64,000 nt of DNA. Source: Candidatus Buchananbacteria bacterium CG10_big_fil_rev_8_21_14_0_10_33_19. Lineage in GTDB: Bacteria; Patescibacteriota; Patescibacteriia; 2-01-FULL-39-33. Location of the stretch: the NCBI GenBank assembly GCA_002773855.1, contig PEZY01000004.1, positions 6,090 to 70,089 of the forward strand. Reading direction: 5' to 3'. Position numbers and translations under genes: made by a program. The notes under the pieces were generated by a model that was given only the letters and a program-made list of their open reading frames with translations, made no database searches and was not told the DNA's origin. This document shows, in pieces, positions 27,851-62,130 of the stretch. Numbering within the stretch: the first letter of the stretch is position 1; every line of letters begins with the position of its first letter.

Positions 27851-28294
27851 TTATTTTTTTCTAAAACTATTAACCATAATTAATATAACTCCCAGAACTA
27901 TCATCACATCAGCTAAATTAAAAACGGTATAATATTTTAAATCTATATAATCAATTACCTCTCTCCAAATAATTCGATCAATTAAATTGGATATTGCCCC
28001 CAATATAATAAGAGTGAAGCCCAAAATATTAAAATTATTTTTTTGCTGATAAGCTTTTAATAAAGCAAAAAATAAAACGGGAATAATTAAAAAATAAATT
28101 AAAATTAAAGCATAGTAGTTAAAACCTAGTCCAAAAGCAATGCCCGAATTAGTGGCTAATTTTAATTTTAAAATATCACCAAAAATAAAATATTCCTCAC
28201 TAGCATTAGTGAAGAATATTTTTTTAAGTAATATATCCAAAAATAATACATTTAAAACTATGATATTGATAGCCCAATATCTAATATTTAACAT
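27851..28294 (-). CDS. lspA: Lipoprotein signal peptidase II.
   Basis: 'NSGIAFG', 'NLIDR' and 'FNLAD' LspA motifs. Confidence 0.8.
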   Translation of the reverse strand: MLNIRYWAINIIVLNVLFLDILLKKIFFTNASEEYFIFGDILKLKLATNSGIAFGLGFNYYALILIYFLIIPVLFFALLKAYQQKNNFNILGFTLIILGAISNLIDRIIWREVIDYIDLKYYTVFNLADVMIVLGVILIMVNSFRKK

Positions 28295-28296
28295 GA

Positions 28297-28692
28297 TTAT
28301 TTTCTAGTAATGGCATTTTTACAAGAAACACAAGAACCTGATTCTGGACGTATTTTTAATCTTTCAATTTCAATTGGCTCTCCACAATGGCTACAAGTAC
28401 CATAGGTACCATCTGCTATTTTCTTTAAAGATTTTTCAACATCCCTTAAATCCTTTTCTAACTCTCTTTCTACTGATAGATTTTTAGCATAATCAGCTAC
28501 CTCTACGGCATTGTCTTCAGCGCTATCGCCATAATCTGGAAAGTCAGCATTAAAATTTATTTCTGCACCAACCTCACCAGTCTCTTGATGACCAATACTA
28601 CCAAGCTGTTCAATAACAGAAATCTTTCTGTCTTCGAGTTTCTTTTTAAGACTTTCTAGTAACTGTTTATCCATAGATTTATTATTAATCAT
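28297..28692 (-). CDS. DksA/TraR-family C4 zinc-finger protein. The ORF table extends it upstream through a non-coding GC-rich element; the likely start is 'MINNKSMDKQ'.
   Basis: C-terminal 'CSHCGEPI...CVSCKN' with the coiled-coil N-terminus typical of DksA/TraR. The upstream 145 aa of the ORF are not protein-like. Confidence 0.6.
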   Translation of the reverse strand: MINNKSMDKQLLESLKKKLEDRKISVIEQLGSIGHQETGEVGAEINFNADFPDYGDSAEDNAVEVADYAKNLSVERELEKDLRDVEKSLKKIADGTYGTCSHCGEPIEIERLKIRPESGSCVSCKNAITRK

Positions 28693-28734
28693 AAACTTAA
28701 AATTCCCTACAGGAATTGATAGTAGTATAGCAGA

Positions 28735-29109
28735 AAAAAAAGAGAAAAAAAAGGAGCGCAAGTTTTTCTCCACATGCACGGGTATGTATTGGAGTGACTT
28801 ACGCTCACGGACTCTAGAGTCTGTCTTGACTATCGCCAATAGTTGGCTGGCAGCAGACAAGAATGCAGGACCTAAGAGGGTTTGTTTATTCGAACAATAA
28901 ACTATGTTTTCTACCGGATACTGGCCGAAAACCCTCTTTGTGGGGGTCGACCTTACGAGGTCGTCAGCATGGAGGTAGTTCGATTGTCCCTCCAAAAAAT
29001 CAGTTGTATCTAGTAAAAAACAGAGAGTTAACATCAAAGCTTGGTTTTCATGGTAATTCCCTACAAAAATTGTTAAAAAGAGCATTTCACAGTGATTATC
29101 ATAATCACT
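28735..29109 (-). ncRNA. Candidate structured non-coding RNA or long structured leader (unclassified) upstream of the dksA-like gene.
   Basis: Evidence that it is non-coding: abrupt GC rise in an AT-rich genome, no protein-like ORF on either strand, and multiple long-range complementary segments such as AAGAGGGTTT/AAACCCTCTT. Evidence that it is transcribed: a perfect sigma70 promoter 5' of it on the minus strand, and a 3' GGAG...CTCC hairpin followed by U8. Confidence 0.35.
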
Positions 29110-29115
29110 GTAATC

Positions 29116-29144
29116 ATTATAGCACACTTTTTAGTCAATGTCAA
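29116..29144 (-). promoter_or_regulatory. Perfect consensus sigma70 promoter (TTGACA-N17-TGcTATAAT) reading into the GC-rich element.
   Basis: Minus-strand sequence TTGACATTGACTAAAAAGTGTGCTATAAT with exact -35 and -10 hexamers, 17-nt spacer and a TGn extended -10. Confidence 0.55.
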
Positions 29145-29192
29145 TGCTAAATATTGACTAAAATTAGAGAAAAAGACTCCACTAGCTATTTT

Positions 29193-29236
29193 ATATCCAC
29201 AGGCTTCCTTTAGAAGTTATCAACTCTTTATCCACA
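29193..29236. promoter_or_regulatory. Two DnaA-box-like 9-mers (aTATCCACA and exact TTATCCACA), same orientation, ~35 bp apart.
   Basis: Match to the DnaA box consensus TTATCCACA, read directly. Confidence 0.3.
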
Positions 29237-29277
29237 ACAGATAAAAATTGTGCAAAACTACACATAGTAGCTAATTT

Positions 29278-30612
29278 TTATCTTAAAATAAGGCCTTTTT
29301 CGGTAATTTCCAAAGAATTAAATATCTTAACATAATCAGTAAAACTGTTATCGGCCACTAAACTAGTATTAAATTTAAGGTAATTGCCATTTTCTAAGCG
29401 ATCTAGCCAATTTTGATTCATTAAATATTCATTATTGCTAATGATTATCTTATTATCAACACTTTTATACATTAATTTAAACTGGTTATCTGGTGAATCC
29501 AAATACATCACACCATTTCTATCCAAAAACGAAAACTGACTAATGTCTGGCAATAATTCCAAGACCCTAGTTCCATCGGACAAGTAAACACTTTTAGCAA
29601 CTGGATACCTATTAGCCATAATAGTTTTTAATATTTCCTCTATTTTACCACTATAAATATTCTCGACCACCACATAAAAATCATAATCTCCAAACAACCA
29701 GCCAGAATTATCAGCCTTCTTATTAGCTAGTACAAAAACATTGTGGCTATCAATTGGTAAATAGGTATTTAAAATAACAGCTAACTTACTATCTATAAAT
29801 GATTGATAGTCACTACTAGACGTTGTTTGTAAATTATTTTTCCAGTTATTTAGTAGGTCGCTAAAATTAGTGGTCAAAAAAACAATATCGCCATCAATTT
29901 TATCTTTTAAATTTTTAACTTCGAAAGCAGAATAACTACCAACTACTGATGATATTCCACCATAATACAGTCTTAAACCATCACCTTTAGCTTTAAAGCT
30001 AAGAATTATATCACTATTTTCATTTCTTAGCAGTAACTGAGTAATACCTAAATTAAGATCATCGCCAGATCCTAAAAATAATTTAGAAGCATAAATATTT
30101 ATCGAACTAAACGGATGAAATCTTTTGACAATACTAGATTTGATTATATTTTTTTGATCAGGCGTGTAAACATTTAACCAATTAGAATCCGCTACTAAAA
30201 ATCTATTGTAAGATAATGTTTTATACTCTATATTATTACTCTTAAGTATTTTTTTTACTCTACTAGGACGATCAGTTTTAAAAATAACACCATATTTCAT
30301 AACGTTATTATCTAAACGACCAACAATCGAAACTTCCCGATCAATATCTAAAGATTCATAGCCTGGTAAGCCAAAATTGAAAAGTATTTTATCTAATAAC
30401 CCGTCAATCTTATTAGAGCTATTTATCTTTGGTCGACTAAAATGAACATAAAAATTAACATCACTAGCCACATAATTTATTAGAGTATCAGCAAAATTAC
30501 GTTGCCAAATAGCTAATAATGACACCAAAATAAAAACACCTCCAACTACAGATAAAGCGATAACTTTACTGCGTCTAGAGATGTTTTTAGATTTAAAGTA
30601 ATTAACAAGCAT
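29278..30612 (-). CDS. Hypothetical membrane-anchored protein (444 aa).
   Basis: N-terminal TM helix then a large Asn/Ser-rich soluble region. No motif recognised. Confidence 0.4.
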   Translation of the reverse strand: MLVNYFKSKNISRRSKVIALSVVGGVFILVSLLAIWQRNFADTLINYVASDVNFYVHFSRPKINSSNKIDGLLDKILFNFGLPGYESLDIDREVSIVGRLDNNVMKYGVIFKTDRPSRVKKILKSNNIEYKTLSYNRFLVADSNWLNVYTPDQKNIIKSSIVKRFHPFSSINIYASKLFLGSGDDLNLGITQLLLRNENSDIILSFKAKGDGLRLYYGGISSVVGSYSAFEVKNLKDKIDGDIVFLTTNFSDLLNNWKNNLQTTSSSDYQSFIDSKLAVILNTYLPIDSHNVFVLANKKADNSGWLFGDYDFYVVVENIYSGKIEEILKTIMANRYPVAKSVYLSDGTRVLELLPDISQFSFLDRNGVMYLDSPDNQFKLMYKSVDNKIIISNNEYLMNQNWLDRLENGNYLKFNTSLVADNSFTDYVKIFNSLEITEKGLILR

Positions 30613-30627
30613 GATTACGAGAGAATT

Positions 30628-32889
30628 TTATCTTTTTCTAAAACCAGATCCGCCACGATCACTTCTCTGACGATCAAATCTGGCTCGATCACTGGTATGA
30701 TGTGCACCACCACTTGTAGCTGGATTATCATTTCGTGGCTGAGGTTTGTAATTAGGATCAGCTTGCTTAACTGATAAATTAATTCTGCCTTGATTATCAA
30801 TTTCCATAACTTTAACCTTTAAAATCTGTCCAACTTTAGCCACATCAGCAATACTATTAACTCGCTCATTAGAAAATTCAGAAATATGAACTAGACCATC
30901 TTTACCAGGTAAAATTTCGACAAAAGCACCAAAGTCCATTAGTCTCACGACTTTACCTTCATAAATTTCTCCGGCTTTAACATCTTTAGTTAATCTTTCT
31001 ACCCATTCTTTAGCCTTGTTTAAACCTTCTGAGCCCACACCAGTAATACTAACAGTGCCATCATCATCAATATCAATTTGTACACCACAAACCTCGATAA
31101 TCTCATTAATTATTTTACCACCAGTACCAATTACCGCACCAATTTTTTCTGGATCAATCTTAATCGCAATAATTTGTGGCGCATACTGTGATAATTCTGT
31201 TCGAGGTTCTGCTATGACCTGGTTAATCATATCCAAAATTTCTACTCTAGCTTTTTTAGCCTGAGACAAAGTAGCCTGACAAATTTCCATAGATAAGCCA
31301 GCAGTTTTAGTATCCATTTGAATAGCGGTAATACCATCTCTAGTGCCGGTCACTTTAAAATCCATGCCACCCTCACCATCCTCTAAATCTTGCAAATCAG
31401 TTAAAATTTTATATTTGTCACCCTTTGAGGCTAAACCCATAGCAATACCGGCTACCGGTTTTTTAATTGGCACACCTGCATCCATTAAGGCTAAAGTTGA
31501 ACCACAGGTCGAAGCCATAGACGAAGAACCATTAGAGCCCATGACTTCTGAAACAGTTAAAATAGTGTAAGGAAACTCCTCCTTACTTGGTAAAACTGGA
31601 ATCAAAGCTTTTTCAGCTAAAGCACCATGGCCAACTTCTCTGCGGCCAGCGCCTCTAAAAAATCCCACTTCACCAAAAGAATATGCTGGTGAATTATAAA
31701 AATGCATATAGCGTTTTTTAGAATCATCTTGAGTCATCTCATCTTGAATCATGACATCACTTGGTGCACCTAAAGTAACAATAGACAAAACCTGAGTTTC
31801 ACCCCGAGAGAATAAACCAGTGCCATGAGTTCTTGGCAAAATCCCCACTTCGGCTTCTAACGGTCTAATTTGATCTAATTTTCGACCATCAACTCTTAAT
31901 TCTTTTTCTAAAATAGCTTCAGACACCACCTCTTCCAAATAACCTTCAAAACTATCTTTAACATAACTAATTATTTCTTCATGAGTGTCTGAATCTTTTA
32001 AGGTAGCCACAAATTCATCCAAGACCACTTTAGCCTTAGCTTTTCTTTCACGCTTAGTACCCACTGGTTGATTAAACAAATATTGATCTAATCTGGTGGC
32101 AAAGAATTTTTTAGCTTCTTCAAATATTGCTTCTTTTTCGCCTATCTCTACTTGCATACCAGCATAAGAATCAGCAATTAATTTAGCTTCATCTTGTTTT
32201 TCTAAACCAATATCTTTTCTGATTAATTCGATAAAATCCAAAAGTGGCTTAACACTTTTAACAGCAAAATCTAGAGCACTAGCCATATCATTTTCTAATA
32301 CTTCTTGACCATCAGCATCAATCATCATAACTTTATCGCCAGCCACAGAAATTACTAAATTTAAATTTGAATTTTCTTTTTGATCGGCTGTTGGATTAAT
32401 AATAAAATTACCATCAACTCGACCAATATTAATACCAGCTAGTGGACCATGCCAAGGAATATCAGAAATATGCAGAGCCATAGCCGCTGCTGTAATAGAC
32501 AAAATATCAAAAGAATTTTCCTTGTCATAAGACAATGAAGTTAAAACTACTTGTACTTCATTTCTCATTTTTTGATTAAATAATGGTCTAATGCCGCGAT
32601 CAATCATTCGAGCAGCTAGAACCGCATTATCTGTTGGACGACCTTCGCCTTTGATAAATTTAGAGCCCTTAATTTTTCCAGAGGCGTACATTTTTTCTCG
32701 CACTTCAATTTGTAACGGAAAAAAATCAATACCACTGCGAGCTTCTTTACTCATAACTACTGTCGCTAGAGCTACGGTGTCACCATATCTAACAACACAA
32801 GAAGCATTTGTTTGCTTGGCTAATTTGCCAAATTCTACTGACAATTTTCGGCCAGCGAATTCCATTTCAAAACTTTTTTGTTTTAACAT
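30628..32889 (-). CDS. pnp: Polynucleotide phosphorylase.
   Basis: Two RNase PH domains, KH and S1 domains, and a Gly/Arg-rich C-terminal tail. Conserved rpsO-pnp synteny. Confidence 0.9.
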   Translation of the reverse strand: MLKQKSFEMEFAGRKLSVEFGKLAKQTNASCVVRYGDTVALATVVMSKEARSGIDFFPLQIEVREKMYASGKIKGSKFIKGEGRPTDNAVLAARMIDRGIRPLFNQKMRNEVQVVLTSLSYDKENSFDILSITAAAMALHISDIPWHGPLAGINIGRVDGNFIINPTADQKENSNLNLVISVAGDKVMMIDADGQEVLENDMASALDFAVKSVKPLLDFIELIRKDIGLEKQDEAKLIADSYAGMQVEIGEKEAIFEEAKKFFATRLDQYLFNQPVGTKRERKAKAKVVLDEFVATLKDSDTHEEIISYVKDSFEGYLEEVVSEAILEKELRVDGRKLDQIRPLEAEVGILPRTHGTGLFSRGETQVLSIVTLGAPSDVMIQDEMTQDDSKKRYMHFYNSPAYSFGEVGFFRGAGRREVGHGALAEKALIPVLPSKEEFPYTILTVSEVMGSNGSSSMASTCGSTLALMDAGVPIKKPVAGIAMGLASKGDKYKILTDLQDLEDGEGGMDFKVTGTRDGITAIQMDTKTAGLSMEICQATLSQAKKARVEILDMINQVIAEPRTELSQYAPQIIAIKIDPEKIGAVIGTGGKIINEIIEVCGVQIDIDDDGTVSITGVGSEGLNKAKEWVERLTKDVKAGEIYEGKVVRLMDFGAFVEILPGKDGLVHISEFSNERVNSIADVAKVGQILKVKVMEIDNQGRINLSVKQADPNYKPQPRNDNPATSGGAHHTSDRARFDRQRSDRGGSGFRKR

Positions 32890-33758: not shown

Positions 33759-33827
33759 AAATATTTTTTATTTATAAATAATATTTATATTATAGCAAAA
33801 ATATTATTTTTGGACAAAAAAACAGGC

Positions 33828-34157
33828 TCACGAGGAGCCTGTGTGTTCACAGTTGGGGCACTGTGTGGCTTGATCCTTTTGTGGATCAACATAACCACAC
33901 CGTGGGCAAGCACCAGATATTTCTACTAGTCGCTTTATTTTTCCCTTTCTTTTTTTCTTGGCCACTTCCTTTTCTTTACTACTGCACTCAGTGGCATAGT
34001 ATTTGTGTTTGTCCCAAGGCTTTTGCAGTTGAATTTTGACATAAAATCCAACCACCTGATCAGCTGTATAAGCATGAAAAGGGCCAGCCACTTTGACCCC
34101 ATCAGACCTACGCCTAATGTCAAAAAGAATGGGCGTCTTCTGCTTTTTTGCTTTCAA
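33828..34157 (-). CDS. Small basic protein with C-terminal Zn ribbon (CPRCG...CPNCEH), hypothetical.
   Basis: Sits in a GC-elevated patch (33830-34680). Cys4 motif. Confidence 0.35.
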   Translation of the reverse strand: MKAKKQKTPILFDIRRRSDGVKVAGPFHAYTADQVVGFYVKIQLQKPWDKHKYYATECSSKEKEVAKKKRKGKIKRLVEISGACPRCGYVDPQKDQATQCPNCEHTGSS

Positions 34158-34160
34158 TAG

Positions 34161-34671
34161 TCATCTCCTACTGTTGAGAATTGTGCCAGCCCATCTGGCC
34201 ATAGCCGAATAAACACTGCGAGAGACATGGGTAGTAGTCGGCTGCTCTTCATTTATCACTTGGCGACCATTGTCTATTAAGGCAATTTTGCCAGTGACAT
34301 TTGAAAAAGTAAACCGAGCGTTGTACTCGACAACATCAATTGTGACCTGTTGCTTCTGTCGATCAACTGACTGAAGTAACAAAGTCACCTCTTGACCACC
34401 ACTTCTTCTAACAATTTTTTGAGCCAACTTGTGTTCTCCTCTGGCTGATTTCCGATTGAACTGCTTCTGCCCAATCATCCATAGCGATACCAGAACGTTC
34501 GTCGTAGAAGTCACCAGAACACCACGACTGCGACAATAAGGCTTCCCAAATTATCTGCAATTCTGACAATGTCATAGTCTTCAACTTTTCAAAAATACTA
34601 GACATGATTTTTTTCCTTTCTTGTAAGGTACGTTTCACCTCGATTATATCATATTTTAGTATTTTTGTCAA
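34161..34671 (-). pseudogene. Two out-of-frame overlapping ORFs (34161..34514 and 34408..34671). Possibly one frameshifted gene or a genuinely overlapping pair.
   Basis: 107-nt overlap in different frames within the same GC-shifted patch. Neither ORF has a recognisable domain. Confidence 0.25.
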
Positions 34672-62038: not shown

Positions 62039-62057
62039 ATAATAATTACTACAATAG

Positions 62058-62130
62058 TAGGCCTGGGTGGAATTGAACCGCCGACATCTACGTTATAAGC
62101 GTAGCGCTCTAACCACTGAGCTACAGGCCC
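62058..62130 (-). tRNA. tRNA-Ile (anticodon UAU). Anticodon assignment from a hand fold.
   Basis: Acceptor GGGCCTG/CAGGCCT. D-arm GCTC-AGTGGTTA-GAGC. Anticodon stem CTACG/CGTAG, loop CTTATAA. T-arm GGCGG-TTCAATT-CCACC with one C-A mismatch. Confidence 0.6.

Follow-up and report, generated by a model that had tools for sequence, protein, structure and literature searches.

What does a GC-rich interval encode when neither of its strands carries a recognisable protein gene? This question is raised by a 64,000-nucleotide (nt) stretch of the genome of Candidatus Buchananbacteria bacterium CG10_big_fil_rev_8_21_14_0_10_33_19 (contig PEZY01000004.1), hereafter the window, in which an interval of 586 nt separates the gene of a 444-amino-acid (aa) protein from a gene of the DksA/TraR-like type (the dksA-like gene, or dksA). 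The original prediction, made by reading the letters of the window, placed a structured non-coding element in this interval and proposed three options: a divergent RNase P RNA, transfer-messenger RNA (tmRNA) or signal recognition particle (SRP) RNA; a long leader of the dksA-like gene; or an uncharacterised RNA. Our main finding is that positions 28745-29111 of the window, on the minus strand, probably correspond to a stand-alone non-coding RNA gene of about 365 nt (330-470 nt in relatives), a reading to which we give a probability of about 0.72. Among the three options, an uncharacterised structured RNA is the one supported; a divergent RNase P RNA, tmRNA or SRP RNA is not, and a leader of dksA appears unlikely. 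We consider the RNA, with a confidence of about 0.7-0.8, to be a member of a new, previously undescribed structured RNA family of ABY1-type Patescibacteria, and rate any specific function much lower than this statement.

Transcription unit and conservation

The interval stands out by its composition, with 46-49% G+C over 28750-29000 versus 25-30% on either flank, in agreement with the GC-rich stretch of about 270 nt described originally. The absence of a protein-like open reading frame (ORF), also claimed at that time, was confirmed: Pfam yields nothing for the two ORFs crossing the region, even at a cut-off of E ≤ 1, and gene callers leave the interval empty, or call just short ORFs without a family, both in the source genome and in relatives. 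The minus-strand fold has a z score of -3.7 relative to shuffled sequences, none of 200 shuffles being equal to it, and that of the plus strand a z score of -2.5. The signals predicted to delimit a transcript are the following.

29116-29144, minus strand: sigma70-type promoter, TTGACA (29139-29144), 17-nt spacer and extended -10 element TGcTATAAT (29116-29124), a 12/12 match to the consensus
29089-29111, minus strand: putative transcription start (about 29109-29111, placed by its distance from the -10 element) and 5'-terminal hairpin HP1, ACAGUGAUUAUGAUAAUCACUGU
28745-28806, minus strand: long GC-rich terminator hairpin HP9 (28754-28806) followed by CU8 (28745-28753), the predicted 3' end of the RNA

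The promoter had been called a textbook one, and deserves the name: it is conserved in relatives, and is the sole perfect TTGACA-N17-TATAAT site with an upstream TG (29144-29116, minus strand) within 28200-29400. The terminator hairpin with its U8 tract had likewise been seen correctly, although its distance to the annotated dksA ATG (28692) is 52 nt and not about 45. The HP9 stem covaries (GAGCG/CGCUC, AGGCG/CGCCU, AGGAG/CUCCU, GGCAU/GUGCC), and its apical loop is AU-rich, conserved and open, with a length of 16-20 nt in most relatives.

Using the DksA-like protein, we retrieved 65 loci (designated L and a number) from GTDB genomes and JGI/ENA metagenomes, and 10 more were obtained by exact-protein look-ups. 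In many retrieved loci, blastn and nhmmer placed the element immediately 5' of the dksA-like gene and in its orientation, and a TTGAC-N17-TGnTATAAT promoter located 380-600 nt upstream of dksA is common to more than 25 of them. When the closest four are aligned, conservation extends to the promoter, the 5' hairpin, the structured body and the terminator. Searches with two covariance models, R1 and R2, led to 18 distinct sequences as firm members: the window, L003-L008, L013, L015, L026, L028, L029, L031, L032, L035, L038, L071 and L073. All are from metagenome-assembled genomes of ABY1-type Patescibacteria labelled Buchananbacteria or Falkowbacteria; L022/L060 is a weaker member (R1 match at 5e-5). 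On the window itself, the R2 model scores 126.6 bits on the minus strand versus 20.1 bits on the plus strand. Covariance-model E-values are rough, and model-fitted alignments lean towards the model; the main statistics reported below are therefore also given on sequence-only alignments.

RNA, promoter and terminator are kept across at least 18 lineages, in which identity of the DksA-like protein drops to about 55-60%. The block pnp - hypothetical gene (420-480 aa) - RNA - dksA-like gene - lspA recurs widely; the RNA gene is inherited vertically with this block and is single-copy within the window. A G+C content unlike that of the surroundings would also be expected of a pseudogene in decay, or of inserted GC-rich DNA that folds by chance. 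We attach a negligible probability to this reading: substitutions in helices are compensatory rather than codon-like, the element is conserved together with its promoter and terminator in all these lineages, and Pfam gives no protein-family match. The original prediction had allowed that relatives might show no conserved structure; as detailed below, helices covary across them.

Consensus fold and known RNA families

Compensatory base changes support about 10 helices. HP1 and HP2 form a 5' hairpin domain; next comes a three-way junction, which contains HP3 and Y/HP5 and is closed by helix X, and HP6-HP9 make up the 3' domain. In addition to HP1 and HP9, the elements of the fold are as follows.

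29022-29062, minus strand: HP2, long irregular hairpin AGGGAAUUACCAUGAAA...UUUGAUGUUAACUCUCU with a variable tip (RNAalifold on 16 sequences: 15 pairs, 7 compensatory)
28906-29021, minus strand: central three-way-junction domain, closed by helix X (covariation)
29006-29021 with 28906-28921, minus strand: helix X, a long-range helix of 14 bp, GUUUUUUACU-AGAUAC with GUAUC-C-GGUAGAAAAC, about 85 nt apart (covariation)
28970-28994, minus strand: HP3, with a conserved 13-nt loop, inside helix X
28947-28952 with 28923-28928, minus strand: helix Y, GGUCGA/UCGGCC (covariation)
28932-28945, minus strand: HP5, which caps Y, with the conserved loop CACAAAGA
28884-28902, minus strand: HP6 hairpin, with loop GUUCGA at 28890-28895
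28810-28861, minus strand: 3' domain with HP7 (28825-28861), the invariant junction ACAG and HP8 (28810-28821) (R1 alignment)

HP8 is separated from the terminator hairpin HP9 by CGU. The original prediction had called for a covariation analysis; in related loci, alignments of 16-17 sequences contain double-sided changes that support the fold. In the sequence-only MAFFT alignment of 16 RNAs, 84.1% of the cells of the whole body are paired, versus 39-45% in a control where helix partners are slid; 43 of the 62 pairs show a double-sided change, and none of 500 shuffles was as high. In the same alignment helix X is 91.7% paired, and nine of its 14 pairs change on both sides. The central domain alone is 86.2% paired versus 38-51% when slid. 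For the 3' domain, taken from the R1 covariance-model alignment of 17 sequences, 90.7% of the cells pair versus 39-47% when partners are displaced by 1-3 columns, 24 of 28 pairs change on both sides, and the observed values were reached in 0/500 shuffles.

Individual helices illustrate these changes. Helix X occurs in relatives as GUCUUUUAC/GUAGAAGAC, GCCCUGUAC/GUAGAGGGC, GUCAUGUAC/GUAGAUGAC and GUCAUAUAC/GUAUAUGGC, among others; helix Y as GGUCG/CGACC, GGUUG/CAACC (L031) and GGUCAA/UUGACC (L071); and HP1 persists in close relatives despite base changes (ACAGUG/CACUGU versus AUAGUG/CAUUAU). At the tip of HP2, L003 (1520-1640) and L005 (1990-2135) carry a hairpin insert of 70-100 nt (ACCCCGUUAAAU...AUUUAACUGGGGU), which shows that this tip tolerates large expansions, as variable helices of RNase P or ribosomal RNA do.

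The complementarities noticed originally fared unequally. The pairing in GACTCTAGAGTC corresponds to the covarying hairpin HP8, and the GGTCG strand of CGACC...GGTCG does pair, but with a better-supported CGACC partner located downstream, in helix Y. The corresponding hairpin, CGACC-loop-GGUCG (HP4), was rejected: its support is weaker than that of helix Y, and L031, L071 and L073 retain only the Y pairing. The pairing AAGAGGGTTT...AAACCCTCTT is confined to the nearest relatives, L026, L028, L031 and L073 having lost it, and is therefore not supported. In these four loci the 10-bp helix AAGAGGGUUU/AAACCCUCUU of the single-sequence minimum-free-energy fold is not conserved either, and it competes with the covarying HP5 and Y; it was also rejected.

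A further contact joins two loops. UCGAAC in the HP3 loop (28978-28983) is complementary to GUUCGA in the HP6 loop, and the two change together: UCGAAC:GUUCGA in the window and seven relatives, UGGGC:GCCCA in L007, L015, L032 and L038, and AGGGC:GCCCU in L035. In L004 the loops are UGAAC:GUUCA, with a deletion in one and a G to A change in the other. Cognate loops average 5.4 bp, versus 3.5 bp for cross-group combinations. Since HP3 is within helix X and HP6 outside it, the contact constitutes a kissing loop, or pseudoknot, that docks two domains.

We propose as family traits a helix X of the GUCUUUUAC/GUAGAAGAC type closing a junction with HP3; the HP3-HP6 kissing loop; and the succession of CAAGACAG, a small hairpin, CGUAGGCG and the terminator. 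They are found in the window and 17 further distinct sequences, except that HP3 and the kissing loop are absent from L006, L029 and L013. In these three loci the 5' strand of helix X can form a local hairpin instead (CUGCC...GGCAG, UUACC...GGUAA), which hints at alternative conformations.

At the equivalent place, more distant Patescibacteria harbour other GC-rich, internally covarying RNAs of 330-520 nt, each with a strong consensus promoter and a terminator: Komeilibacteria (L016-18 and L021), Andersenbacteria (L025), L023/L062, L024/L061/L064-L067, L052/L053, L056-L058 and L063. Each has a linker rich in A and C, such as AACAAAAACAAA, and the loop of its terminator hairpin is AU-rich; in several of them, a pairing similar to helix X can be seen by eye. 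For the linkers of distant groups, a tmRNA-like tag frame was considered and rejected, the frames being inconsistent. These RNAs may be diverged relatives or further new RNAs.

Does the RNA belong to a known family? At gathering score, Rfam 15 reports only four tRNAs in the window and nothing in 20 loci. Permissive searches, run at E ≤ 10 on 28600-29300 and on the isolated L052 RNA, at E ≤ 5 on the entire window and at E ≤ 1 on 11 loci, returned chance-level matches only, and their listings contain no RNase P, tmRNA, SRP, 6S, riboswitch, T-box, OLE, raiA, ROOL, GOLLD or HEARO. The original prediction, which had found no signature of RNase P, tmRNA or SRP by eye and had called for an Rfam search covering also 6S, riboswitches and T-boxes, is thus borne out at E ≤ 10. 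Nor does the fold obtained from covariation contain the cores that define RNase P, tmRNA or SRP RNA. ARAGORN detected no tmRNA in the window or in 31 loci. The string GGTAGTTCGATTG, which resembles a T arm and was described originally as T-loop-like, is on the non-transcribed strand; its minus-strand complement is the HP3 loop engaged in the kissing contact. As for SRP, there was no match at E ≤ 10, and the helix 8 GGAA/AGCA loop motif occurs in no hairpin of the consensus structure. Group I and group II introns and HEARO/omega RNA have no Rfam 15 match, and the locus contains no adjacent IscB, TnpB or reverse-transcriptase gene and no interrupted host gene. No account of such an RNA was found in the literature searched.

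A highly divergent RNase P RNA would fit the size and the promoter type. In the Candidate Phyla Radiation (CPR), RNase P RNAs can fall below Rfam cut-offs, yet they were recovered by RF00010 with a conserved core, and this in all CPR genomes of the set of Lui et al. (PMC8172020), including six circular ABY1 genomes. In our case, RF00010 and RF00011 gave no match at E ≤ 10 on the RNA region of the window or on the L052 RNA, at E ≤ 5 over the entire window, or in 20 loci searched at gathering score, the listing floor being about 12-15 bits. By eye, the ACAAAGAG/ACAGAGG motif and GGUAGAG recall conserved region (CR) II of the S domain; the full mapping of CR-I, CR-II, CR-V and P4 made in this way was rejected, because covariation makes GGUAGA a helix strand (the 3' strand of X) and ACAAAGAG a hairpin loop. 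Moreover, when every pair of alignment columns was scanned for covarying stacks of 5 bp, HP2, X, HP7 and HP9 emerged, but neither a terminal P1 joining 5' and 3' ends nor a P4-like pairing did. CR-I (GGAAAGUCC) and CR-V (ACAGAA..GGCUUA) are absent in the required order, and the RNA ends at its 3' side with the terminator hairpin. We conclude that an RNase P RNA is highly improbable.

Relation to dksA and upstream region

The RNA is directly upstream of dksA, on the same strand, and could be a long cis-regulatory leader (riboswitch or attenuator), whose terminator would set read-through from the strong promoter into dksA-lspA. The short sequence between terminator and dksA contains two elements that lie outside the RNA.

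28724-28732, minus strand: extended -10 element of the dksA-like gene itself, TGCTATACT
28701-28717, minus strand: hairpin of the dksA 5' untranslated region (UTR), AAUUCC-UGU-AGGGAAUU

A TGnTAnAnT element is found 10-20 nt past the terminator in all RNA-bearing loci, and the 5'-UTR hairpin covaries (UCCCU/GGGGA, UCCCC/GGGG, UUUCCU/AGGAAA, UCCC/GGGA). Furthermore, where rsmE precedes a dksA orthologue, that gene has a consensus promoter of its own and the locus contains no copy of the RNA. In L060, a DnaA box, a promoter and a terminator all accompany the RNA, and about 490 nt of unrelated sequence separate it from dksA. Within this spacer (1010-1290) are two copies of a GC-rich, hairpin-containing repeat (...GGGAUCCCGCUAAGCGGGA...), which may be a small repeat element.

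Some features do recall a leader. In the cobalamin riboswitch, the loop of a junction domain kisses a hairpin 3' of the domain, an architecture resembling the contact between the junction domain and HP6; in addition, the alternative local hairpin of L006, L029 and L013 would suit a switch, as would the proximity of the terminator to the annotated start. However, no conserved antiterminator, or alternative pairing with the terminator strand, was found by the covarying-stack scan of column pairs or by inspection, the 3' domain shows stronger conservation than expected of an expression platform, and the RNA is far larger than known aptamers, with no riboswitch or T-box match at E ≤ 10. Given its own promoter and strong terminator, the -10 element of dksA, the orthologues devoid of RNA and the separation in L060, we consider a dksA leader decidedly unlikely, and retain the stand-alone gene.

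The original prediction had drawn attention to an 11-mer, AATTCCCTACA. It indeed has exactly two copies, at 28701-28711 and 29055-29065 (the coordinates first given were 2-4 nt off), for an expected count of 0.1, and one of 100 shuffles reached two. The two copies correspond to the 5' arm of HP2 and to the 3' arm of the covarying hairpin at the predicted 5' end of dksA mRNA. Because relatives share only a GGG(A/G) core at the two sites, we take the exact repeat to be incidental rather than a meaningful element. The HP2 5' arm also contains the short upstream ORF MKTKL proposed originally; it is not conserved, its start codon being absent in relatives, which read CCATTAA.

The shared arm nevertheless raises another possibility, namely a base-pairing (or dual-function) regulatory RNA that would target, for instance, the dksA 5' hairpin through AGGGAAUU. 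In the window, L003-L005 and L026, the HP2 5' arm carrying this sequence has its complement, AAUUCCC, in the 5' arm of the dksA 5'-UTR hairpin; the RNA also has a terminator-ended 3' end, as in Hfq-type small RNAs. Such complementarity is a trivial outcome when a GGG-rich arm is common to two hairpins, and in L028 and L031 it erodes. The presumed seed is sequestered within a covarying helix, small RNAs do not typically have this size or tertiary structure, and the upstream ORF is not conserved. We hold this possibility to be very unlikely.

On its other side, the stand-alone RNA gene is preceded by two kinds of conserved sequence.

29193-29236, minus strand: DnaA-box-like 9-mers in one orientation, TGTGGATAA (perfect, 29228-29236), GTTGATAAC (29216-29224) and TGTGGATAT (29193-29201)
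29153-29167, minus strand: motif CTAATTTTAGTCAAT, adjoining the -35 hexamer on its 5' side and conserved as a (G)CTAATnTTAGCCAAT-like sequence in nearly all loci

The box at 29228-29236 is the sole perfect DnaA box (TTATCCACA) in the 64-kb window, and clusters of two to five boxes occur at the same place in L004, L007, L026, L028, L031, L035, L060, L071 and L073. A replication origin was considered and rejected, as cumulative GC skew is monotonic over 64 kb, without a sign change; a DnaA-regulated promoter, or a site titrating DnaA, would be more likely than an origin. The -35-adjacent motif, which may be an UP element or an operator, extends more widely than the RNA itself, since it is also present in the distant loci L016, L017, L023 and L064.

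The neighbouring genes are all on the minus strand, in the order pnp, 444-aa protein gene, RNA interval, dksA-like gene, lspA and comM.

30628-32889, minus strand: pnp, encoding polynucleotide phosphorylase (PNPase)
29278-30612, minus strand: 444-aa protein with an N-terminal membrane helix
28297-28692, minus strand: DksA/TraR (YteA-like) zinc-finger protein

The 444-aa protein has no Pfam or NCBIfam family match. It evolves fast, with only 14 homologues and identity down to 42%, and its position between pnp and the RNA is kept in many loci; used as a query for genomes whose dksA is devoid of the RNA, it returned only close relatives. The true start of the dksA-like gene is probably its second ATG (28672-28674), M7 of the listed ORF: this methionine hardly varies among 27 homologues, and no ATG stands at the first position in L003 and L005.

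Two further observations concern other parts of the window. ARAGORN reports a tRNA-Ile with anticodon UAU at 62057-62130 (minus strand), which is unusual, since AUA is normally decoded in bacteria by a lysidine-modified CAU tRNA. In addition, about 750 nt at 33800-34550 have 42-49% G+C versus about 31% for the genome. This segment contains only three ORFs, all short (109, 117 and 87 aa), on the minus strand and with non-ATG starts, one of them with a CxxC...CxxC zinc-ribbon. It has no Rfam match, and may be foreign DNA or small-protein genes.

Interpretation and comparison with known RNAs

Few bacterial RNAs with a complex fold exceed 300 nt (RNase P, tmRNA, group I and II introns, OLE, GOLLD, ROOL, raiA and HEARO), and each of them has pointed to unusual biochemistry. 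CPR bacteria, or Patescibacteria, make up a large share of bacterial diversity, and their tiny genomes can afford few non-essential genes; to our knowledge, almost nothing is known of their non-coding RNAs. A conserved, strongly promoted RNA of about 365 nt, with a three-way junction and a covarying kissing loop, that is kept in a streamlined genome of about 1 Mb is likely to have an important role.

We propose that the RNA is stable, abundant and trans-acting, and that it would act through its folded shape, as a component of a ribonucleoprotein (RNP) or as a protein-binding regulator, rather than as an antisense RNA or a cis leader. Its working surface would likely be formed by the invariant unpaired stretches, namely the HP5 loop CACAAAGAG, the junction CAAGACAG and CGUAGG before the terminator stem. 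Promoter output is probably modulated by DnaA through the conserved upstream box cluster. A broader proposal is that the RNA is the first known representative of a class of large housekeeping RNAs with tertiary structure, new and specific to a major CPR branch, and that it is a new ribozyme or RNP core whose expression is coupled to DnaA, with highly diverged versions at the same locus in Komeilibacteria, Andersenbacteria and others. We advance it tentatively, its chances being somewhat less than even.

Several points weigh against our interpretation. The terminator is directly upstream of dksA, where regulated read-through is conceivable, and both transcript ends are placed from sequence signals only. 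A protein-binding, trans-acting mode is suggested by analogy with other stand-alone RNAs of complex fold. All loci were reached through the neighbouring DksA-like protein, so that linkage, copy number per genome and phyletic range are biased. Finally, the positional analogues in distant Patescibacteria are not shown to be homologous: R2 gives no hits on them, and R1 weak matches only (L017, 1e-3; L016, 0.19). Even so, the RNA offers a concrete, well-delimited target for metatranscriptomics, structure determination and pull-downs, and the conserved DnaA-box cluster a rare handle on gene regulation in uncultured CPR organisms.

The neighbour of the RNA suggests one more function. In 6S RNA (RF00013) and mycobacterial Ms1, an abundant RNA binds RNA polymerase, and a functional analogue tuning global transcription might be encoded here beside the secondary-channel factor DksA. 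Like these RNAs, the window RNA is predicted to be abundant and stable, with a strong housekeeping-type sigma70 promoter and a highly structured, terminator-ended body. Its conserved neighbour, a DksA/YteA-like zinc-finger protein, belongs to a family of RNA-polymerase-binding factors, the terminator hairpin has a conserved, open AU-rich loop in most relatives, and no 6S RNA is recognisable in the window with Rfam. However, 6S RNA, which binds the sigma70 holoenzyme and serves as a template for product RNA (pRNA), is a rod of about 180-200 nt in which a large two-sided central bubble lies between a closing stem and a terminal stem, whereas the consensus fold is branched, with a three-way junction, a kissing loop and separate 3' hairpins, and with 330-470 nt is about twice as long; RF00013 does not match even at E ≤ 10. 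Adjacency to dksA, moreover, may merely reflect the conserved pnp-to-comM gene block. Branched fold and length exclude membership of the 6S family, but not a 6S-like function. We consider such a function unlikely, and the link to RNA polymerase, suggested by synteny alone, a speculative lead.

Comparison with other systems places the stand-alone RNA gene more precisely. RNase P RNA (RF00010, RF00011) is similar in length, has a multi-helix junction with long-range helices and a housekeeping-type promoter; the window RNA differs from it by the lack of P1, of the P4 pseudoknot, of CR-I/CR-V and of any permissive match. With the cobalamin riboswitch (RF00174) it shares the kissing contact between a junction-domain loop and a 3' hairpin, but it has no B12 box or model match, it has its own terminator followed by a separate promoter, and the downstream gene is unrelated to cobalamin. 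The raiA motif RNA (RF03072) is a large structured non-coding RNA of Firmicutes and Actinobacteria that stands alone just upstream of the stress-related gene raiA, apparently as its own transcription unit. The window RNA resembles it as a stand-alone RNA of a few hundred nt, with a complex fold, upstream of one stress-related gene (here dksA-like); it differs in phylum, in architecture (three-way junction and kissing loop) and in neighbour, and does not match the Rfam model. Finally, OLE, ROOL and GOLLD exceed 300 nt, have many covarying helices and tertiary contacts, including loop-loop pairing, and are encoded by lineage-restricted, well-conserved genes, all of which is found here. The OLE gene, moreover, lies among housekeeping genes beside a membrane-protein gene, as the window RNA gene lies near lspA and the gene of the 444-aa protein with its membrane helix. 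Compared to these RNAs of about 580-800 nt, the RNA described here is smaller, matches no Rfam model and has a CPR host.

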